Both the position numbers and the translations under genes were made by a program. Of a stretch of 64,000 bases of DNA, positions 47,045 through 59,794 are shown piece by piece. The number at the start of each line of letters is the position of its first letter. Positions within the stretch are counted from its first letter, which is position 1. The notes below the pieces were generated by a model. That model saw nothing but the letters and a program-made list of their open reading frames with translations. It ran no database searches and was not told the DNA's origin. Source of the DNA: an uncultured Chloroflexia bacterium (GTDB lineage Bacteria > Chloroflexota > Anaerolineae > JAAYZQ01); NCBI GenBank assembly GCA_963749455.1, contig CAVVMX010000021.1, positions 393,354-457,353 on the forward strand, read 5' to 3'.

Positions 47045-47630
47045 ATGCCGACCCGAGAAGAAGCCTGGCAGTTGGTGAACGAGTATACCAGCAATCCCGG
47101 CCTGGTACGTCACATGCTGGCCGTGGAGGCAGCGATGCGGGCCTATGCCCTCAAGTACGGACAGGATGAGGAGCCTGTGGGGCATTGTGGGCCTGGTCCA
47201 CGATTTCGATTACGAGCGCAACCCCGACCTGTCGGTGGAGGGCCACCCGGTCATCGGTGCGCGTCTGCTTCGGGAGTGGGGTTGGCCGGAGGAGATCGTC
47301 CGGGCGATACTGGCCCATGCCGGCGAGTATACCGGTGTCCAGCCCGAGTCACTGATGGAGAAAGCGCTGGTGGCCGTGGATGAGCTGACCGGTTTCCTCG
47401 TAGCGGTTGCCTTGGTGCGCCCGACCAAGGACATTCGAGATATCACCAAGATCAAGTCGGTCAAGGACAAGTGGAAGGACCGTGCCTTTGCTGCAGCGGT
47501 CAACCGGGCCGAGATCGAGCATACCTGCCAGGCGTTGGGCGTGGACCTGTGGACGGAGCACGTGCCGCTGGTGCTGGAGGCGATGCAGGCGATTGCGTCA
47601 CAGCTCGGGCTGGACGGGCAGGCAACCTAG
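47045..47630 (+). CDS. HD-domain phosphohydrolase; one frameshift near 47170
   Basis: HMLAVEAAMRAYALKYGQDEE then ...GIVGLVHDFDYERNPDLSVEGHPVIGARLLREWGWPEEIVRAILAHA (HD motif H...HD...H) in a second frame. Confidence 0.55.
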
Positions 47631-47637
47631 AAGGCGG

Positions 47638-50054
47638 TCACCGCTCTGTCTTGACCCACCACTGCTGGCCGTCCGTAATCAGCTCGATAGTACCTACCTG
47701 GTCGGTGCGAAGGACGGTGGCTCCCAGTTGGGTCAGACGATCCAGGACGGCCGTCGCCGGATGGCCAAACCGGTTGCCGGCACCGGCTGAGACAACAGCA
47801 TAGGTGGGGTGCACGGCTGCCACAAAGCCGGCGCTCGACGAGCTGTTGCTGCCGTGGTGGGCCAGCTTGAGCACGTCGGCCGACAAGCGGCTGTTCGGAC
47901 CAGATCAACGAGCTCTCTGCCTCGGCCGCAATGTCCCCTGTGAGCAGGACGCTGGCTTGCTCCCAGGTCAGCCGCAGCACAACCGATTGATCGTTGGCAT
48001 CGGCTCGTGTGTCAGCCGCTGGGTCAGGCGTTGTGGCCGGATTGAGCACCGTCAGGACGGCTCCGTCACCCAGGTCGATCTTGACCCCAGCCTGGACGAT
48101 GCTGCGAGTCACCTTTCCCCTGTCCAGTTCCTTGCTGGCATTCTTCATAGATCGCCTGGCCCTCGGCACGGCCGTTGTCGAGCCACCCGCCCACCCGGTA
48201 GCGTCTCAGCACTTCCACCAGGCCGGTGATATGATCGGCGTCGGCATGAGTCATCACCACCAGGTCGATCGACCGATCCCAGAACGGCATCTCGCTGACC
48301 CAACCCTGACGTCAGGGCCGTGGGGCTGGGGCCGCCGTCGACCAGGATCTGCTGGCCGCGCGGGGTGGTGATGAGGGTGGCATCACCCTCGCCGACGTCC
48401 AGAAAGGCGATGTGCAGCCGGCCATCGGGCAGTTGCAGGACGGCCAGCCAGATGAGCGACCACTGTCACCGGAAGCAGCCCCAGCATGACCGCTGCCGAG
48501 CCGGCGGGGCAGGCGGGCCGCCAGCCAGTTCCAGAGACGGCGGTCGTACCCCTGGCTGTAGGCCCAAACTGCGGCCAGCAGCAGGCAGTAATACAGGGCC
48601 AGCCGGCTGGCCCTGTCCGGACTGATCTGAACGGAGGCCATCGGCCAGGTGGCCAGCCAACGCACAACGGCCGTGGTATAGGCCAGGCCAAGCCATGGGA
48701 TCCAGAAGATGAGCTGGGCAATCGGTTGAAGGAAAGGGAGGAGCCCGACGAGTGTTGCCACCCCGCCGGCGATGATGATGGCCGGCTGGGCCGGCAGGAT
48801 CAGCAGGTTGGCCAGAGGCGCCACCAGCGACAACTGTCCAAAGTGATAGACGATCAGCGGGCAGGGTCAGGATCTGTGCGGCCAGCGTGACGATCAGTAG
48901 GTCGTCCAGGTAGCGAACTGCCTTCTTGGCCCTTTCCTGAGGCAGGACGCGCGCCAATCCGCGCTCAAAAAGCCGGTCCAGCGCTGGGGAGAACAGGATC
49001 AGGCCCAGGGTGGCGGCAAAGCTGAGCTGAAAGCCGACGTCCCACAGTGAGAAGGGATTGATCGCAGTCAACAGCAGGCCCGAGGCGCACAACGACACAT
49101 AGGCCGTGGCGTGGCGGCCCAGGTACAGGGCCGTCAGGTATAGGCCGGCCATCAGTGCGGCGCGAGCCACGGCCGGCTCAGCGCCGACCAGCAGCACGTA
49201 CAACCCGACGCCGCCCAGGGTGAACCAATAGGCCCGGCGCTTGCCCAACAGCCGTCCACAAGTCCGGGAAAGCAGCGCGGCGATGATGGTCAGGTTGGCG
49301 CCGCTGATGACCAGGATATGGCTGGTGCCGGTTGCGTTGAACAGGTCGTAAAGGTCGCGGGGGATGCTGGCCCGGATGCCCAGGATGATGCCCTGCAGCA
49401 GCGACGCCTCGGGCTCGGGCACCAGGCGGGCGATGGCGGCTCGAGCCCGGTCCTTGACGGCACAGAAGGCTGCCTTGATCGGGCTGCCCTGGTCCTCTGC
49501 CAGGAGCTCGATGCGTGGCCGGCCGATGTAGGAGTAGATCCCCTGACGGGCCAAGTACGCCTCGTAGGAAAAGCCCTCCATCTCGGGCGGGGTCTCCAGC
49601 AGGCCAGACACTCGCAGCCGGTCGCCATAGGCATACTCTGGCAGACGAGGGGCGCGCACCAGTACAGTCCCATGGACCGGGTAGACCTGGCCGCCGACCT
49701 CGACCGATTCGGCGCTCGAGCCGCAGGTTGGTCCAGGTGTCGCGCACGTCGGGATAGCCAGACACGACGCCCTCGACGGTCAGCCATCCGCTGTCGTTAT
49801 AGTGCGCCGACAAAGGTCTGGTCGGCCCAGTTGGGCAGGGCCGCTTGATAGCGCAGGGCGCCGGCGAGCAGGGCCAGGGCGCAGACGCCGCTCAACCGCA
49901 TGGAGCGATCTCGCCGCCACAGGACCGCGGCGGCCAATGGTATGATGGACAGGATCAGCAGTGCGGCGGGTTCGACGCCGCTGGGCGCCAGCACATAGTG
50001 GGCCAAGGACAGGCCAGCCGCCCATGCAGCTGCAACCAAGACCAGGGGAGGCAT
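47638..50054 (-). CDS. comEC: ComEC/Rec2-family DNA internalisation competence protein with C-terminal metallo-beta-lactamase domain; many frameshifts
   Basis: N-terminal TMs, competence domain (TGTSHILVISGANLTIIAALL), MBL motif VVMTHADADHITGL, C-terminal LKLAHHGSNSSSS... in colinear pieces across ORFs 49797..50141, 48466..49659, 48312..48833, 48066..48290 and 47638..47886. Confidence 0.65.
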
Positions 50055-50145
50055 GAGTGGTACTCTTTGATAGGTGAGACCTGACGGGCTGTCGGAAGAA
50101 CCCCGCCCAAGTGGGAGAGGTGGCCCGTGTGGACCTGTCAAGGCT

Positions 50146-50843
50146 CTACAGCCTGGGCATATAGTAGCCTACGCCCCGCTCAGAGCAGATGTAGCGCGGC
50201 TTCTGGGGGTCGGGTTCGATCTTGCGGCGCAGGTAGGTGGCGTATACCTTGACATTCTTGTCACCCCCTCTGATAGGCCACGTCCCAGACGTTGGCCAGG
50301 ATGCTTTCGTAGGTGAGCACCCGCCCGGCATTCTGTGCCAGGTAGAGCAGGAAACGGTACTCGGTGGGCGTGAGCCGGACCTCTTCGCCGTCGGCTACCA
50401 CCCGACGGCAGACTGGGTCGATGATCAGCTGGCCGTGGTCGAAGCTGAGCACTTGATCTGCCTGTTCGACCGGCTGAGCACACCTGCGCAGCAGGGCCTC
50501 GATGCGGGCTACCAGTTCCTCCCGGTCAAACGGTTTGGGTACATAGTCGTCAGCTCCGCCGTGCAAACCTTGCACGATCGTGCGCCACCTCTCCAAGTGC
50601 AGTCAGCATGATGACCGGCACGGTGGACATCTCGCGGATCCGTTTTAGCGTTTCCCAGCCATCCATGCCGGGCATCATGACATCGAGCAGTATCAGGTCC
50701 GGCCGTTCGTGGTACAGCAGTCGTATCGCCTGTAACCCCCCACTGGCGCTCAGGACCTCGTAGCCCCGCCGCTCTAGCATGGCTCGCAGGAGTTGCTGTA
50801 GGTCCTCTTCGTCGTCCACCACCAATAGCTTTGGTGCCATCAT
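50146..50843 (-). CDS. OmpR/PhoB-family response regulator; about 2 frameshifts
   Basis: Receiver [11 protein letters not shown]...[14 protein letters not shown] (canonical Asp pocket). Winged-helix output ([37 protein letters not shown]). No histidine kinase adjacent. Confidence 0.7.
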
Positions 50844-50999
50844 GCCTCAGGTCCGAGAGGGTCAGGACGTCGGACCAACAGATTATACCGACACCGGTGG
50901 GGAATGTCAAATCCAATAGCAGAAGGGTCTCTAGTCTTTAGGTTGGCTAACTGGAGAGAAAACAGCCGGCGCGAGGTCCCTGTCTGGCCCCCTACTCGA

Positions 51000-51389
51000 T
51001 CATGAACGGAGCTGCTCGTCAGCGGCATTCCACTCGGCGCGGCGCAGTCGGGCCAGGATCCGTGCGCATAGCTCGTTCAGAGAGGATGGCCACCGGATAT
51101 AGTCGTCGGCCCCCTGCCGCAGCCCTCGCACAGCGTCAGCCCGGTTGCGACTGGAGGAACACAGGATCAGAGGAACGCCCGATCTGGCCCGAATGTCGCG
51201 CAACAAGCTCCAATCCATCGGGTCTTCGACCTGGAGCAATATCAGGTCTGGTTGGAACGTGCCTAGAAGGGCCAGGCTGGACCTGGTTGCCGGAGCAACG
51301 TGCACGCCATAGTCCTGACCCGGAAGAAACGCTGCTACCTTGCGCGCCAGGTTGCCACGTCTTTCCAAGACCAGGATCCGGGTCGGCAC
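51000..51389 (-). CDS. stand-alone atypical receiver-domain protein (pseudo-receiver)
   Basis: CheY-like fold, but acidic pocket DD replaced (ILVLERRGNL) and the phospho-acceptor Asp position reads DLILLQVEDP (Gln). Confidence 0.5.
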   Translation of the reverse strand: MPTRILVLERRGNLARKVAAFLPGQDYGVHVAPATRSSLALLGTFQPDLILLQVEDPMDWSLLRDIRARSGVPLILCSSSRNRADAVRGLRQGADDYIRWPSSLNELCARILARLRRAEWNAADEQLRS

Positions 51390-51690: not shown

Positions 51691-51719
51691 TTGACAGAAT
51701 CCTGTATCTGTGCTATTAT
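51691..51719 (+). promoter_or_regulatory. consensus sigma70 promoter (TTGACA, 17 bp, TATTAT) of the RiPP-like operon
   Basis: 33 bp upstream of ATG 51752. Confidence 0.5.
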
Positions 51720-51751: not shown

Positions 51752-52047
51752 ATGGAAGTCCTTTCCCGGCGCTACCGCAAGAGCCCCGATCTGGTCTTTC
51801 GACAGATAGCTGGTGAGTTTGTGCTGGTGCCGATCCGGCACGACGTGGCCGACCTGGAGGCGGTATACACCCTGGCGGGGTAGGCGCGCGCATCTGGGAG
51901 CTGCTGGATGGCGAGCGGGATGGCCATGCCGTCCTGGACCAGATCGTGCAAGAGTACGACGTCACCCCTGACGAGGCCCGGACCGATCTGGTCGAGTTTC
52001 TCGGCGAGCTGGAAGCGGTGCAGGGGATAGTGCCGGTAGAGGCCTGA
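51752..52047 (+). CDS. PqqD-family RiPP recognition element (peptide chaperone); one frameshift near 51880
   Basis: MEVLSRRYRKSPDLVFRQIAGEFVLVPIRHDVADLEAVYTLAG then VGARIWELLDGERDGHAVLDQIVQEYDVTPDEARTDLVEFLGELEAVQGIVPVEA* has the PqqD/RRE layout (beta strands, then LNxxgxxIWellDG helix). Stop TGA overlaps ATG of the rSAM gene. Confidence 0.6.
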
Positions 52048-52048
52048 C

Positions 52049-53168
52049 ATGGGTGACGGGCAGAGTACAAGAAGCAGGTCGGTGCGAGATTGGATCGACC
52101 GTATCGATCAGCGCACGGGAGATCATCGCGTGCCCTGGCTCATCTCCCTGGAGCTGACCGAGCGCTGCAACCTGCGCTGTGTGCACTGCTACGTCAACCG
52201 GCCGGCCGGCGACGACGAGGTCCGCCGGAAAGAGATGACCCTGGCCGAGTGGCAGGGGATCCTGGATCAGGTAGCCGATGCCGGCACGCTGTGGCTGCTG
52301 GTGACCGGCGGCGAGCCGCTCCTCCGGCCCGATTTTCCCGACTTCTACCGGTATGCCAAGGGCAAGGGGCTGCACGTTATCCTGTTTACCAACGGTACCC
52401 TGCTGACGCCGGAGCTGGCCGACCTGCTGGCCGAGTACCCACCGTGGGAGATCGAGATCACCCTGTACGGGGCCACCGCCGAGATCTACGAGCGGGTCAC
52501 CGGCGTGCCCGGTTCCTATGACCGGTGCCGGCGGGGGATTGACCTGCTGCTGGAGCGCGGCCTGGCCCTGAACCTGAAGACGATGGCCCTGACGCTGAAC
52601 GTGCACGAGCTGCCGGCCATGCAGCGCATGGCCGACGACCTGGGGGTGCGCTTTCGCTGGGATCCGGCAGTCCACTCGCGGCTGGACGGCGACCACCGGC
52701 CGCTGGCCTGCCGCCTGTCGCCGGAGGAGATCGTCGCCCTGGAGCGGCAGGACCCCAAGCGGATGCAGCAGTGGCAGGAGTACTGCGGGCGGCCTGGCTG
52801 TCGCCGATGAGGACCGGCTCTTTATGTGTGGGGCAGGGTTGGGCACTTTTCACCTGGATCCGTATGGCGGCCTCTATCCTTGCCTTACGGCCCGCTGGCT
52901 GCGTTATGACCTCCTGCGGGGTTCGGTTAGGAAGGCGCTGGGGGAGTTTCTTCCGGCCGTGCGTGCCCTGCCGGTTGCGCCCGACAGCACGTGCCGGAAG
53001 TGCGACCTGCGGATCATCTGCCAGAACTGCCCGGCCTGGGCATATCGCGAGATAGGCGACCCTGAGGCTCCTGAACCGTTCCGTTGCGAGTTGGGCCGTC
53101 TGCGACAGACTAATCTGGGCCTGACCGTGACGTCTGCCACGGGAAAGGCACAAGCGCAGTCATGCTAA
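52049..53168 (+). CDS. radical SAM / SPASM-domain peptide-modifying enzyme; one frameshift near 52810
   Basis: CNLRCVHC (Cx3Cx2C) radical SAM cluster motif, GGEPLL. C-terminal SPASM Cys clusters (CGAGLGTFHLDPYGGLYPC, CRKCDLRIICQNCPAW). Confidence 0.75.
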
Positions 53169-53198
53169 TATCAGATCGATTAAGGAGGGATTCACGTG

Positions 53199-53309
53199 AT
53201 GACAGAAAGCAAGAAAGCGTACCAGAAACCGACCTTGGAGCGGGTGGTGCTGATCCCGCAGGAGAATGTGCTGGGAGACTGCTACCACCTCCGGCCGCAG
53301 GCGACATGA
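53199..53309 (+). CDS. candidate RiPP precursor peptide (36 aa): MTESKKAYQKPTLERVVLIPQENVLGDCYHLRPQAT
   Basis: Strong AAGGAGGG RBS 6-9 nt upstream of GTG 53196/ATG 53199. Starts 31 nt after the rSAM stop. Charged leader plus C-terminal GDCYHLR core with a single Cys. Stop TGA overlaps ATG of the kinase-like gene. Confidence 0.45.
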   Translation: MTESKKAYQKPTLERVVLIPQENVLGDCYHLRPQAT

Positions 53310-54268
53310 AGCCAGTGCGGGCCACCCATCCCGTGTCCGACAGAGCATATCGAGCTGGCCGACGGCCCACGGCTGGCCGAAGCCGTAATCGGGTAGACCT
53401 TGTGTCGTTTTCTCTGGCTCGCATCGCCGGGCTGGACCTGTGCCTTCGGTGGGAGGCGGGATGTCCCTGGAAGGGATTTCCTCCTCAGTATGATCCCTTT
53501 CGCGTTTCGGATGGCGAAGGCGCCAATGTCGAGCTCACCATTCGCGTCCTGCCGGCGCCCTCCGGCGGGAATGAGGGGCCCGGGGGGGCGGGGACCGTGC
53601 CTTCAGGCCGGCCGACTTCTGGGCCGTGTTTCCTCGCAACGGAGGCTGGCGCTTTGTCAACGGGCCCATGGCAGCTGGCAAGTGGCAGCGGGCGTTGGCC
53701 TGGTCCCCGGGATCGGGGCAGGCGCATCTGTGGCTGGAGTCCAGCGTTCCCTCTCCTGATCCGCTGGGAGACTTGACCTTGCCGTTCTTCACGGCCCTGT
53801 TCGCCCATCACCACGGCCTCCTGCTCCACGCTGCGGCTGTGGAGGTAGACGGGCGGGCGTGGGTCTTTGCCGGGCCGTCGGGCACGGGCAAGAGCCATTG
53901 GTCCCGGCAGTGGCAGGACCGTGGCATGACCGTGCTCGACGAGGACCGTGATCGTGCTGCGTCAGTTGGATGGGCAAGTGTGGGCCTTTGGCACGCCGTG
54001 GCACGCCGAGCCCCGCCTCTGCTCGCCGCGCGGAGCGCCGGTGGAGCGGATCTTTTTCCTGCGGCAGGCCGAGACGGACACGGTGCAGGAGGTCCGGCAG
54101 GCGGCGGGGACCGCGCTGCTCATCCGCTCCTCGCAGTTGCCTCTCTGGGATCCAGAAGGGATGCAGACGGTCCTCGACGTCGCCGGGCAGGCGGCGACCC
54201 AGGCGCGGCTCTTTGGCCTTGGCCGCATGACTGACGATGGTCTGCTCGATCGCGTGATGGCGCTGTAG
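53306..54268 (+). CDS. HprK-related kinase-like P-loop protein (serine-kinase fold), about 2-3 frameshifts
   Basis: P-loop AGPSGTGKSHWS followed by GTPWHAE. Overall HPr kinase C-terminal-domain-like layout, distributed over ORFs 53162..53776, 53626..54234 and 53948..54268. Confidence 0.45.
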
Positions 54269-54485: not shown

Positions 54486-55849
54486 TTGGACGATTTCGAG
54501 GGAGACTTGCTGACCTTCCCGGCAGGGTTCGCCTGGGGTGTTGCTACTGCTGCCTACCAGATCGAGGGGGCGTGGAACGAAGGCGGCCGCGGCCTGTCGA
54601 TTTGGGACACCTTCTGCCGCCGGCCGGGCAAGGTGCACAACGGCGACACCGGCGATGTGGCCGATGATCACTATCACCGCTGGGCTGAGGACGTGGCCAT
54701 CATGGCCGAGCTGGGCGTGAACGCCTATCGCTTTTCGATCTCCTGGCCGCGCGTCCTGCCCGATGGCAAGAGTGTCATCAACCTGGCGGGCCTCGATTTC
54801 TACGACCGGTTGGTGGAGGCGCTGCTGGCCAGAGGCATTACCCCCTTTGTCACGCTCTACCACTGGGACCTGCCCCAGGCGCTTCAGGATCAGGTGGGGG
54901 CTGGGCCAGCCGCGACACGGCCCGCTATTTTGCCGACTATGCCCACCTTGTCGGCAGGCGCCTCGGTGACCGGGTGAAGCACTGGATCACCCACAACGAG
55001 CCGTTCGTCGTCGTGTTCCTTGGGCATCAGACGGGACGCACGCACCGGGCGTGCAGGACCAGGCCGTCGCCTCCGCCGTTCGCCATCACCTGCTGCTGTC
55101 GCACGGCTACGCTGTGGGCGCGCTGCGCGACGCAGTCCAGGATGCACAGGTCGGCATCACGCTGGACCTCTACCCTGTCCATCCTGCCTCGGATTCCGAG
55201 GCAGGATCAGGAAGCCGCCAGGCGATTTGACGGCATGCACAACCGCATCTATCTCGACCCGGTCCTGCGCGGCAGCTATCCTGACGACATGGTCGCTCTC
55301 TTGGGCCCGCACTTTCCCCAGATTCAGCCGGGGGACATGGAGGTGATCTCGACCCCGATCGATTTCCTGGGAGTGAACTACTACAGCCGCTCGGTCGTCA
55401 AGCACGATCCCGATTCGTCCTTTATCCAGATGGCGTGGGTGCGCCCGCAAGGCAGCGACTATTCGGAGATGTGGGAGATCTACCCGCCCGGGATCTATGA
55501 GATGCTGACCCGCCTCCAGGCAGACTACCAGCTCAAGAAGATCTATATCACAGAGAACGGCATTCCTGTGCCTGACGTGCTGACCGCAGACGGGCAGGTG
55601 CACGACCAACAGCGGATCAGGTACATCCGCGATCACCTGGCCCAGCTCCATCGGGCCATCGCCGATGGCGTTCCGCTGCGCGGCTACTTTGCCTGGTCCA
55701 TGCTGGACAATTTCGAGTGGGCGCACGGCTACAAGATGCGTTTTGGATTGGTGTACGTGGATTATGCCACGCAAGTGCGGACGATCAAGGACAGCGGCCG
55801 GTGGTATGCGCGCGTCGCTCGGGAGAATGCCATACGGGCCCGGCGGTAG
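54486..55849 (+). CDS. glycoside hydrolase family 1 beta-glucosidase; about 3 frameshifts
   Basis: TTG start after AGGAGA RBS. GH1 blocks ([20 protein letters not shown], acid/base region TLNEP-like ITHNEPFVV, nucleophile ITENG). Confidence 0.75.
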
Positions 55850-56947: not shown

Positions 56948-57423
56948 GCACTCGATCACAATTAGTTGTGAATGGCGAACAGGAGCGCCTGACCGTGCCG
57001 GCGAACATGACGCTGCTGGAGCTGCTGCGCGAGAGGCTGGCGCTGACCGGCACCAAGAACGGCTGCTCGGCCGGGGAGTGCGGGGCCTGCACGGTGCTTG
57101 ATGAACGGCGAGCCGGTCAACGCCTGCATGGTGCTGGCCGTGGAGGCCGATGGGGCCGAGGTCGTCACCGTCGAAGGGCTGGTCGCACGATGGGCAACTG
57201 GATGCCGTCCAGCAGGCGTTCATGGACGAGGGGGCCGTCCAGTGCGGGTTCTGCACGCCGGGCATGTTGATCTCGGCGCGGGCGCTGCTGACCGCGTACC
57301 CCGCACCCGACCGAGGAGCAGATCCGCGAGGCGCTGGTGGGCAACCTGTGTCGCTGCACCGGCTATACCCGCATCGTGCAGGCGATTCAGAAGGCGTCGC
57401 GCAGCAGCGGACGTGACCGGTGA
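56940..57423 (+). CDS. molybdenum hydroxylase [2Fe-2S] small subunit, CoxS-like; about 2 frameshifts
   Basis: Plant-type ferredoxin motif [11 protein letters not shown] and second cluster motif QCGFCTPGM...NLCRCTGY. Confidence 0.7.
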
Positions 57424-57439
57424 GAGGCAGGAGTGGAAG

Positions 57440-59794
57440 ATGAGCGACGAGAAGCAGACCTTCAATCCTGTCGGCCAGAGTGTCCCGCGCGTGGATGCGC
57501 TGGACAAGGTGACCGGCGCGGCGCAGTTCACCGACGACCTGCAGTTCGGACCGGGGCTGCTGTACGGCCGGGTCGTGCGCAGCCCTCATCCCCACGCGCT
57601 GATCAAGCGGGTGGATGCCAGCCAGGCGCTGGCCGTGCCCGGCGTCAAGGCGGTCGTCACCGGGGCCGACACGCCCGGCTTCATCGGCCTGTACCTGAAG
57701 GACCGGCACATCTTTTGCACCGACCGGGTGCGCTACGTGGGCGATCCGGTGGCCGGGGTGGTCGCGACCAGCGAGGAGATCGCCGAGGAGGCGGCCCGGC
57801 TGGTCGAGGTCGAGTACGAGGAGCTGCCGGCCGTGTTCGACCCGCTGGAGGCGATCAAGCCCGAGGCGCCCCTCCTGCATCCTGACCTGGGGTCCTACGA
57901 AGTCGTGCCCTTTATCTTTCCCAAGGCGGGCACCAACGTCTCCAACATCTTCCGGGTGCGCAAGGGCGACGTGGACGCGGCCTGGGCGCAGTGCGACGCC
58001 ATCGTCGAAGGAACCTACCGCGTGCCGCACATCCAGCACGTGCCGATCGAGCCGCACGTGGCCGTCGCCCGCTGGGAACGCTCTGGCGAGGTGACGCTGT
58101 GGAGCAGCACCCAGTCGCCCTTTGCCCAGCGCGACCTGATCGCCCAGACGCTGGGCATCTCCCAGGGCGACATGCGCGTCATCGGCTCCTACATCGGCGG
58201 CGGCTTTGGCTCCAAGGCGGGCGTGTCGATGGAGGCGCTGGCCGTGGCCATGGCGCAGAAGGTGCCGGGCCGGCCGGTCAAGCTGCGCATGACGCGCGAG
58301 GAAGAGTTCTTCTGCACCTTTGTCCGGCAGGGACTGGTCGCCAAGGTCAAGATCGGCGGCACGCAGCGAGGGCAAGATCCTGGCCCTCCAGGTCGAATAC
58401 TATTGGGACGCCGGGGCCTATACCGAGTATGGCGTGAACATCACCCGCGCGGCGGGCTATTCTTCCACCGGCCCGTACAACGTGCCCAACGTCAAGACCG
58501 ACTCCTACTGCCTCTACACCAACCATCCGGTCGGCGGGCCGATGCGCGGCTTTGGCATGCCCGAGATCCACTGGAGCATCGAGCAGTCGGTGGACCGCCT
58601 GGCCGAAAAGCTGGGCCTGGATCCGGTGCGAGTTCCGCCTCAAGAACTGCGTCAAGGGCGGCGACACGATCGTCACCGGCATGATCATGCACCCGATCGG
58701 CCTGTCAGAGTGCATCGAGCAAGGTGGCGCAAGGCGATCGAGTGGGGCAGCAGGAGAACGCCCGTCGGCCCCGCACAAACGGCGGGGCAAGGGCATCGCC
58801 ATCTGCTGGAAGGCGCCGGCCATGCCGCCCAACGCCGGCTCCGAGGCCTGGGTGCGCTTCAACGAGGACGCGACGGTCAGCGTGGCCGTCAGCGGCCAGG
58901 AGCTGGGCCAGGGCACCTTTACCGTGGCGGCGCAGATGGCGGCCGAGACGCTGGGTGTGCCGTACGAGTGGGTGCGCATCTCCCGTCCGGTGGACACCCG
59001 CTACAGCCCCTACGAGTGGCAGACGGTCGCCAGCCGCCTCACCTGGTCGATGGGCAACGCCGTGCGAGGCCGCCGCCGGCGACGCCCGGCAGCAGATCGT
59101 GGAGATGGTGGCGCGCTACTGGGACGAGGACGCCGGCCGACCTCGACATCCGCAACGGCGAGGTCTTTTCCTATCGCAGCGAGCGGTCCTTCTCCCTGAA
59201 AAAGCATGGTGATCTACGGCCTGCCGCTGCCCGACGACAAGGGTTGGACCGGCGGCCCGATCATCGGCCGCGGCAAGTTCATGCCGACCTACGTCACCGG
59301 CCTGGATCCAGAGACCGGCCAGGGCGAGCGGGCGGTGGTCCACTATACCACCGGGGCGCAGGCGGTCGAGCTGGAGGTGGACACCGAGACGGGGCAGATC
59401 GAGATCGTGCGCCTGGCGGCGGCTTACGACGTGGGCAAGGCGATCAACCCCGACCAGGTGCGCGCCCAGATGGAGGGCGGCGTGGTGCAGGGCGCCAGCT
59501 CGGCCCTGTTCGAGGAGCTGAAGCTGCGCAACGGCAAGCCGGCTGAACCCCTCATTCGTGGACTATCGCATCGCGACGGCCGTGGACGCGCCGCGCAAGA
59601 TCATCGCCGAGTATGTCGAGGTGCCGCAGGATGATGGCCCGTGGGGGGCGCGTGGGATCGGCGAGCACCCGATGATCGCCACCGCGCCGGCCATCGCCAA
59701 CGCGCTCTACGACGCGCTGGGCATCCGCTTCAATGACCTGCCGCTGACGGCCGAGAGGGTGTTCCTCGCCTGGCAGGAGCAACAACCACAGTAG
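57440..59794 (+). CDS. molybdenum hydroxylase molybdopterin-binding large subunit, CoxL/XdhA-like; at least 4 frameshifts
   Basis: AGGAG RBS. MSDEKQTFNPVGQSVPRVDALDKVTG... Mo-cofactor blocks (GGGFGSK, GMPEIHWSIEQ, C-terminal GARGIGEHPMIATAPAIANAL). No AYRCSFR (form I CODH) motif seen. Confidence 0.75.

Follow-up and report, generated by a model that had tools for sequence, protein, structure and literature searches.

The short open reading frame (ORF) at 53196..53309 (+) of the window, as the whole stretch of 64,000 nucleotides analysed here is called, is probably the precursor gene of a four-gene RiPP-type operon, a member of a very large and uncurated family of three-Cys peptides of which the window holds a copy interrupted by a TGA codon. 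That it is a true precursor gene of a large, uncharacterised, Scm-like radical-SAM (rSAM) RiPP family is strongly supported. The native gene would comprise about 65 codons (53199-53396) with the TGA at codon 37, and the 36-aa single-Cys form encoded by the sequence as it stands would not be the native one; the TGA itself is most probably an error of an indel-rich assembly and, less probably, a real nonsense mutation.

The precursor gene and its operon

Read directly from the sequence, the ORF translates as VMTESKKAYQKPTLERVVLIPQENVLGDCYHLRPQAT before its stop codon. Two start codons abut at its beginning, GTG at 53196 and ATG at 53199, and since the relatives of the peptide begin with MT(E/R)EKK... 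the ATG is the likely start of the window precursor. The sequence bears out the original prediction as to the ORF, the AGGAGG ribosome-binding site ahead of it and the GTGATG start; the doubling of the start codon is real and carries no special meaning. The NCBI/ENA gene call at the locus gives the same 36-aa product. A protein search with the window peptide padded to 41 aa returned the peptide itself as its sole match, and neither NCBIfam nor Pfam has a curated family that covers the window peptide, the version read through the TGA or any of the 15 relatives scanned. DUF5972 weakly matches KKAYQKPTL (E=0.2-0.5), and the other NCBIfam and Pfam matches of the peptides are due to chance.

The peptide gene is the third of four, preceded by genes for a PqqD-like RRE and a radical-SAM/SPASM enzyme and followed by that of an HPr-kinase-like ScmC protein (Table 1). 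A promoter scan by consensus match only found three sites where 0.5 were expected, and the one ahead of the PqqD gene is, judged by its sequence, likely the operon promoter; another promoter-like site precedes the next gene, which encodes a GH1 glucosidase, and the two sites thus frame a four-gene operon. No protease or exporter gene was found in the window operon.

Table 1. Positions of the operon features within the window
Feature	Position	Strand	Evidence and remarks
Sigma-70-like promoter TTGACA-17-TATTAT, TG-extended	51691..51719	+	11/12 consensus; 33 nt upstream of PqqD start
PqqD-family RRE	51752..52047	+	Pfam PqqD E=4.6e-15; 98 aa in relatives; TGA stop
Radical-SAM/SPASM peptide maturase	52049..53168	+	Pfam Radical_SAM E=8e-23; 361-378 aa in relatives
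Shine-Dalgarno AGGAGG of precursor gene	53183-53188	+	Read directly; 10 nt ahead of ATG 53199
Precursor up to interruption: leader MTESKKAYQKPTLERVVLIPQENVLGD, Cys1 (codon 28), YHLRPQAT	53199..53306	+	Translation and family alignment
In-frame TGA cutting the precursor	53307..53309	+	Assembly error or nonsense mutation; overlaps ATG 53306, mimicking a coupled start
Core continuation SQCGPPIPCPTEHIELADGPRLAEAVIG, then TAG, with Cys2 and Cys3	53310..53396	+	Same reading frame
ScmC-like protein	53402..54268	+	HPr-kinase-like P-loop GPSGTGKS ... LDEDR; TIGR04249

The rSAM protein carries a CX3CX2C motif, in which C44 and C47 are invariant and C40 nearly so, and seven invariant C-terminal Cys, these seven supplying both auxiliary-cluster sets of a full SPASM pattern. 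It is 84% identical to the protein P0002, its best solved relative is PqqE (6c8v), and no model reached its cutoff in an NCBIfam scan. The frame segments of the PqqD protein are 87-91% and 82-89% identical to the PqqD proteins of the relative loci L083 and L082, and among the NCBIfam models the RRE matches lasso_PqqD_Bac best, its 35 bits falling short of the cutoff of 80. For the downstream protein the best NCBIfam match is TIGR04249 ScmC (46.5 bits, cutoff 125), followed by matches to HprK_rel_B, HprK_rel_A and hpr-ser, and ScmC also matches Hpr_kinase_C; in three frame segments it is about 70-72% identical to the ScmC of L081 and L082, and its P-loop and DD/DE-D-R motif align, weakly (E about 1), to the HPr kinase 2qmh. 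The orthologues in L081, L082 and L092-L094 carry precomputed matches to PF27840 ScmC, and a local Pfam scan gave no PF27840 match for the window protein; as the ScmC proteins of L081 and L092 also went unmatched in that scan, the model may be missing from the local copy.

A widespread family of three-Cys peptides

The rSAM enzyme has thousands of homologues of 361-378 aa, and a short ORF with the same leader adjoins the rSAM gene in all close and many distant relatives, mostly directly downstream. The original prediction, that the ORF encodes the precursor of the adjacent rSAM/SPASM enzyme and PqqD-like RRE, is supported by these homologous short ORFs beside related rSAM genes, the absence of which it had named as grounds for rejecting it. 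The relatives are distributed over Nitrospirota, delta-proteobacterial MAGs, Anaerolineales, Thermoanaerobaculales, Verrucomicrobiota, Omnitrophota and other groups, and PqqD and ScmC homologues are present at loci carrying the short ORF. In four syntenic close relatives (rSAM 75-84% identical) the cassette has the same neighbours as in the window, ComEC and a response regulator (230 aa); their peptides have the leader in common and carry three Cys. For two of them, L081 and L082, the sequence reaches beyond the peptide gene and shows PqqD, rSAM, an ORF of 60-61 aa and ScmC in this order. Variations of the arrangement also occur: the loci L006, L011 and L013 have two or more rSAM genes, and L013 encodes an rSAM-ScmC fusion of 662 aa.

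A word-indexed search with an alignment of 21 peptides gave 464 matches, all of them unnamed and devoid of Pfam domains. With a profile of 121 sequences, searched against 1.84 billion representatives clustered at 50% identity, 1,801 representatives were found at E<=1e-3, 189 of them at E<=1e-10, the best E value going down to 2e-21. The strong support for the precursor call comes from these profile matches together with the homologous ORFs at related loci. Searches of the literature for SynChlorMet or ScmC, and for HPr kinase in combination with rSAM, RiPP or SPASM, found no paper describing the cassette, an absence that is no proof of its being unpublished.

The relatives of the peptide measure 52-66 aa and obey a small set of rules. 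The leader carries a [Y/W]-x-K-P-x-L motif, with K in 117 of 120 members, and the window peptide fits the form [Y/W]-x-K-P-x-[LIVM] with YQKPTL (Y8, K10, P11, L13, and then C28). The first Cys lies exactly 20 residues after the aromatic residue in 114/120 members, as it does in the window peptide, and 21 residues after it in the rest; the spacing is 11-19 between Cys1 and Cys2 and 4-8 between Cys2 and Cys3 among the 120, and five residues follow Cys3 in 104 of them. Three Cys are found in 253 of 260 members; a relative in L084 has two only, and a single Cys occurs in just one of the 260, which is apparently truncated. The C-terminal residue, usually within Gly-Ser, is Ser in 250 and Thr in 7 of the 260 members (257/260, about 99%). 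The N-terminus is basic, and the core is rich in Gly, Ser, Pro, Ala, Asn and Thr and otherwise variable. The Tyr and His that the original prediction had offered as crosslink partners occupy positions that are not conserved in the family, which speaks against this role.

Within the family the window copy groups with a subclade, the nearest named relatives of which are Chloroflexota MAGs; examples of subclade peptides are the L082 peptide, MKTGKRLYQKPVLERVVLIPEENVLGICQTTSDSDQFQSPAPCKLTSLDCQYGTKMLDTRP, and the L088 peptide, MKVVKKEYQKPTLERLVLIPRENVLAVCYSTSASGSFGNPTCNLGSPNGCFLNTAQGPVVP. The leader of this subclade reads LERVVLIPxENVL, the tails are mostly Pro-ended, and the window leader is 76-86% identical to those of its subclade relatives. 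Mean pairwise identity within the subclade is 0.83 in the leader and 0.32 in the core, a contrast between conserved leader and variable core that is typical of RiPPs. In main-clade loci ScmC is often followed by a gene for an S24/S26-like peptidase; none adjoins the window operon.

The in-frame TGA and the quality of the assembly

Beyond the TGA the same frame runs on for 28 codons, opening with SQCGPPIPCPTEH..., until the TAG at 53394-53396, which sits just ahead of the ScmC start at 53402. The GDCYHLRPQAT segment had been taken for a single-Cys core; this ORF end is an in-frame TGA, and the prevalence of three Cys in the family argues against that interpretation. As written the window ORF has one Cys, and the three-Cys spacing appears only if the frame is read through TGA 53307; with the TGA position counted, the spacing is then 11 between Cys1 and Cys2 and 5 between Cys2 and Cys3, both of which fall within the family ranges. 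Alignment of the orthologues places the beginning of ScmC homology only at 53393/53402, so that the 87 bases past the TGA lie outside ScmC, and the distance from peptide stop to ScmC start, 4-12 nt in the relatives, would be 87 bases in the window were the TGA genuine. GC3 over 53310-53396 is nearly equal in the peptide frame (0.76) and in the +1 frame (0.75) and does not tell the two apart. The frame opened by ATG 53306, which an annotator could attach to ScmC, has the lowest GC3 of the three (0.54) and is disfavoured as coding.

The C-terminus of the window peptide, on either reading, departs from the Ser/Thr rule of the family, being the Thr of an artefactual end as written and Gly once the peptide is extended. 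The inter-Cys segment, YHLRPQAT-x-SQ, is without the [ST]G[ST]G-like motif of the subclade relatives, and the extended tail exceeds theirs in length and closes with Gly, which suggests that the local sequence may hold further errors. Two such errors were considered: a pair of compensating indels between Cys1 and Cys2, the +1 frame there containing a ...TTSG... that faintly resembles [ST]G[ST]G, and a CCC/CC homopolymer error, correction of which would yield a ...WPKP tail followed by a stop, Pro-ended as in the relatives.

All three genes neighbouring the peptide gene, on the + strand throughout, are broken by frameshifts: the PqqD gene in a G4 run near 51877, the rSAM gene between about 52795 and 52820, and the ScmC gene at a G7 run near 53585 and again near 53948, so that two of the cassette frameshifts lie in G4 and G7 runs. 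Against the L082 proteins, 8 frameshifts were counted in about 4.1 kb of syntenic coding sequence, about one per 500 bases, and 4 of the 8 fall in ComEC and the response regulator, both unrelated to the cassette. Frameshifts being equally dense in these unrelated neighbours, an origin in the assembly is indicated, not selective decay. Further genes in the window also look split. The scan of the other genes against L082 proteins found indels only and no clean in-frame stop, and a substitution error as the source of the TGA is accordingly no more than a candidate. A metagenome scan for the subclade leader returned seven relatives and no second copy of the organism's locus.

Proposed maturation and comparison with known systems

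Where Cys is conserved in a variable core, as in sacti- and ranthipeptides, it usually serves as the donor in crosslinks that SPASM enzymes make. By analogy with these peptides and with the lasso peptide systems, the PqqD RRE is proposed to bind the YxKPxL leader in the way that B1 proteins of lasso clusters bind YxxPxL, and to present the core to the rSAM/SPASM enzyme, which would use the three Cys for radical crosslinks, most likely thioethers of the sacti-/ranthipeptide type. The ScmC protein may then transfer phosphate to the peptide, the probable target in the main clade being the C-terminal Ser/Thr. More speculatively, the S24/S26-like peptidase of main-clade loci might be the leader peptidase; positions -3 and -1 of the ...LAVG|CK junction are occupied by small residues, and an enzyme of this kind may therefore remove the leader there. 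The YxxPxL motif is conserved in actinobacterial lasso leaders and has been discussed alongside leader-B1 (RRE) binding (PMC6784204), and HPr-kinase homologues in lasso clusters phosphorylate the C-terminal Ser of the linear precursor (PMC8498205). It is the 99% of C-terminal Ser/Thr in the family that suggests a similar phosphorylation by ScmC. The subclade of the window is mostly Pro-ended and yet keeps an intact-looking ScmC, so that a role as C-terminal-Ser kinase would not be general, and the site or the role must differ there.

The SynChlorMet cassette (ScmC/ScmD/ScmE/ScmF, TIGR04249/04248/04250/04251), a computationally defined system, has the same parts, a PqqD homologue, a PqqE-like rSAM/SPASM enzyme and an HprK-like ScmC. 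The window proteins stay below the respective cutoffs (46.5 vs 125, 26 vs 100, 81.4 vs 400 and 82.4 vs 400), as do the intact orthologue P0005 and the L092 proteins. SynChlorMet has two PqqE-like rSAM genes, whereas the window cassette has one, between PqqD and the peptide gene; the loci L006, L011 and L013, with their additional rSAM genes, likewise score below the SynChlorMet cutoffs. The TIGRFAMs text reportedly gives the SynChlorMet precursor as "not identified", and the window cassette differs in having a precursor that can be identified.

With the sacti- and ranthipeptide systems (AlbA/SboA, SkfB/SkfA, CteB/SCIFF, PapB/PapA) the cassette shares a seven-Cys rSAM/SPASM enzyme, a PqqD-type RRE, a leader-core precursor and Cys in the core; the RRE is, however, a separate protein here and an N-terminal domain there, and the leaders differ. 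The HprK-like partner and the C-terminal Gly-Ser are features of this family and not of the sacti-/ranthipeptide classes, and in NCBIfam the rSAM gave no above-cutoff match to the AlbA, StsB, SkfB or PapB models. With lasso systems there are in common a YxxPxL-type leader (YQKPTL) and a discrete PqqD-family RRE, with predicted binding between them, and with paeninodin-type lasso clusters an HPr-kinase homologue beside the precursor, which in the main clade of this family is Ser-ended as well, unlike in the window subclade. In contrast to lasso clusters, neither a B2 protease nor a C cyclase is encoded in the window operon or its neighbours, the window peptide is without Thr at -2 and without an Asp/Glu ring acceptor at core position 7-9 and shows no Thr-x-Gly...Asp/Glu pattern, and the chemistry would be rSAM-based. 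The PqqA/PqqD/PqqE and mycofactocin MftA/MftB/MftC systems also have, within a single operon, genes for a small peptide, for a chaperone of the PqqD type and for a PqqE-like rSAM/SPASM enzyme; there the conserved residues are Glu/Tyr or a C-terminal Val-Tyr and here they are Cys, the equivalog scores here are far below cutoffs, and the other pathway genes are absent.

Alternative readings

The disruption of all four cassette genes, and the lack of any other clean in-frame stop that would hint at assembly errors of the substitution type, are consistent with a genuine TGA in a cassette that is decaying as a whole, the peptide gene being a recent pseudogene. This is unlikely, as frameshifts reach an equal density in the unrelated ComEC and response-regulator genes, other window genes are split, several of the shifts fall in G homopolymers, and the sequence after the TGA keeps the frame, two Cys and a stop just before ScmC. 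The 36-aa single-Cys peptide could otherwise be the true functional precursor, a shortened variant with one crosslink, exactly as the NCBI/ENA gene call has it; the cores are hypervariable, and the L084 relative makes do with two Cys. This reading is rather improbable given that the only single-Cys member among 260 appears truncated, that the leftover 87 bases read in frame with two Cys at the family spacing, and that relatives leave only 4-12 nt between the peptide stop and ScmC. Selenocysteine-containing rSAM target peptides have been proposed in silico, and decoding of the UGA, as selenocysteine or by read-through, would yield the full 65-residue peptide from a frame that is open past the UGA with the expected Cys pattern. 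No stable hairpin was found downstream of the UGA, however (z=0.28; 115 of 200 shuffles fold as well), nor any Rfam element; no in-frame UGA occurs in the relatives whose peptide gene was read, and the PqqD gene of this operon has UGA as its normal stop, all of which makes recoding very improbable.

As to the chemistry, the peptide may tentatively be seen as a genuine rSAM substrate that receives no thioethers, and instead acquires C-C or C-O crosslinks, Cys-derived heterocycles or formylglycine, or serves as a metal- or cofactor-binding peptide, with ScmC as an ATP-dependent scaffold. The rSAM scores alike against the AhbD, MftC, NirJ, PqqE, StsB, PapB and SbtM models, and it is no closer to the sacti-/ranthipeptide synthases than to enzymes of the AhbD, MftC and PqqE type (about 60-120 bits, far below cutoffs); with so many models scoring alike, sequence alone cannot fix the reaction. 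Retention of ScmC in the Pro-ended subclade favours the scaffold role, with which the rSAM-ScmC fusion in L013 is also compatible. On the other side stand three near-invariant Cys at fixed spacing in a variable, Gly/Ser/Asn/Thr-rich core, which is the usual signature of Cys-donor crosslinks, and, for ScmC, a C-terminal hydroxyl residue in 99% of members next to an HprK-like P-loop protein, which parallels the lasso-peptide kinases. The original prediction had also found the leader reminiscent of PqqA. That the peptide is a cofactor precursor of the PqqA kind, matured by PqqE and PqqD, would agree with PqqE being the best solved relative of the rSAM and with the place of the RRE in Pfam PqqD, but it is contradicted by other results and can hardly be entertained: there is no Glu-X3-Tyr pair and no PqqA match in NCBIfam or Pfam, the leader motif being [Y/W]xKPxL; the 76 bits scored with the PqqE model and the 22.6 with the PqqD equivalog lie far under the cutoffs of 381 and 46; neither pqqB nor pqqC is found among the neighbouring ORFs; and the conserved residues are Cys, not Glu/Tyr.

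Significance

The interest of the locus rests on the family and not on the damaged copy in the window. The annotated 36-aa product is misleading, and modelling or synthesis would better start from the L082 or P0140 peptide, or from the re-sequenced locus. What is familiar is the logic of an RRE and an rSAM/SPASM enzyme acting on a Cys-containing precursor; this cassette, however, is abundant in environmental bacteria, and no curated peptide family, above-cutoff enzyme family or paper was found for it, the class comprising at least 1,800 clusters at 50% identity in many mostly uncultured phyla. The rules of the precursor, namely leader motif, Cys register and C-terminal Gly-Ser, make the system directly testable, and a concrete hypothesis is gained for the HprK-like ScmC protein. 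It is possible, though at present doubtful in this full form, that the window holds a damaged copy of an undescribed and widespread RiPP class, in which a lasso-like leader and RRE would deliver a three-Cys core to a SPASM rSAM enzyme and ScmC would modify the C-terminal Ser/Thr, and which may supply the substrate type that Scm-like ("SynChlorMet") cassettes have long lacked and possibly a new crosslink chemistry.

Frame integrity of the window

Comparison with the orthologues of L082, a syntenic close relative, revealed eight frameshifts in about 4.1 kb of the window, some of them lying within G4 and G7 runs, and nearly every gene at 47627-50843, 51752-54268, 54486-55849 and 57098-59634 is broken in this way. 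The contig appears to be an assembly that was polished too little, and any ORF-level finding in the window has therefore to be read with this caveat. The GH1 glucosidase and xanthine-dehydrogenase-like genes of the window are also split in appearance.

Variation among the precursor peptides

The leader of the window peptide has a weak Pfam match, below the cutoff (E=0.2-0.5), to DUF5972, which may be a further short-peptide family with the same leader motif. In the subclade formed by the window peptide and its nearest relatives, most precursors end in Pro (eight of the nine complete ones among the relatives; loci L085-L091, L081 and L082), in contrast to the Gly-Ser end of main-clade precursors; the exceptions are L084, ending in Cys, and the protein P0205, ending in Gly-Thr. 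The stop codon is TAG in all six complete precursors of L085-L091. The L084 precursor, whose locus encodes an rSAM enzyme 79% identical to that of the window, has only two Cys and carries an odd Arg-rich tail (…SLTIRIHAASGRRIIRC), and represents either a divergent core or one more frameshifted copy. Some loci carry two precursor genes in tandem (L077 at ~6018 and ~6529; L006 at ~6227 and ~6786), in which the leaders are nearly identical and the cores differ.

Coordinates of features in the window and in related loci
Feature	Locus	Position	Strand	Remarks
DUF5972 match	window	53220-53246		peptide residues 5-13; KKAYQKPTL against first 9 positions
mir-1307 match (Rfam)	window	53795-53858	+	within ScmC coding region
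Two response regulators	window	50146-51389	-	230 aa with Trans_reg_C; 129 aa
Two-Cys precursor	L084	3433-3603		
S24/S26-like peptidase	L092	9262-9747		main clade; 160-175 aa in the three loci
S24/S26-like peptidase	L093	8118-8600		main clade
S24/S26-like peptidase	L094	9018-9545		main clade
NTP_transf_5 (PF14907)	L081	9617-10801	-	nucleotidyltransferase
NTP_transf_5 (PF14907)	L082	9742-10935	-	nucleotidyltransferase
rSAM/SPASM-ScmC fusion	L013	2321-4309		one ORF, 662 aa

Flanking genes and ScmC

In three main-clade loci ScmC is followed by an S24/S26-like peptidase, a candidate leader peptidase; no equivalent adjoins the window operon or follows ScmC in L081 and L082. In these two closest long relatives the cassette is followed, after roughly 2.5 kb, by a gene for an NTP_transf_5 protein, which has no match in the window, and HPr-kinase homologues of some lasso clusters are accompanied by nucleotidyltransferases (PMC8498205). 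Upstream, a divergent response-regulator pair is found in the window and, at the equivalent position, in all four syntenic relatives (L081-L084), and may regulate the cassette. The mir-1307 match in the window ScmC gene scores 29 bits, where the gathering score is 69, and is regarded as chance. In the L013 locus ScmC is fused to an rSAM/SPASM enzyme, a Rosetta-stone link which suggests that ScmC works with an rSAM enzyme on one shared substrate.
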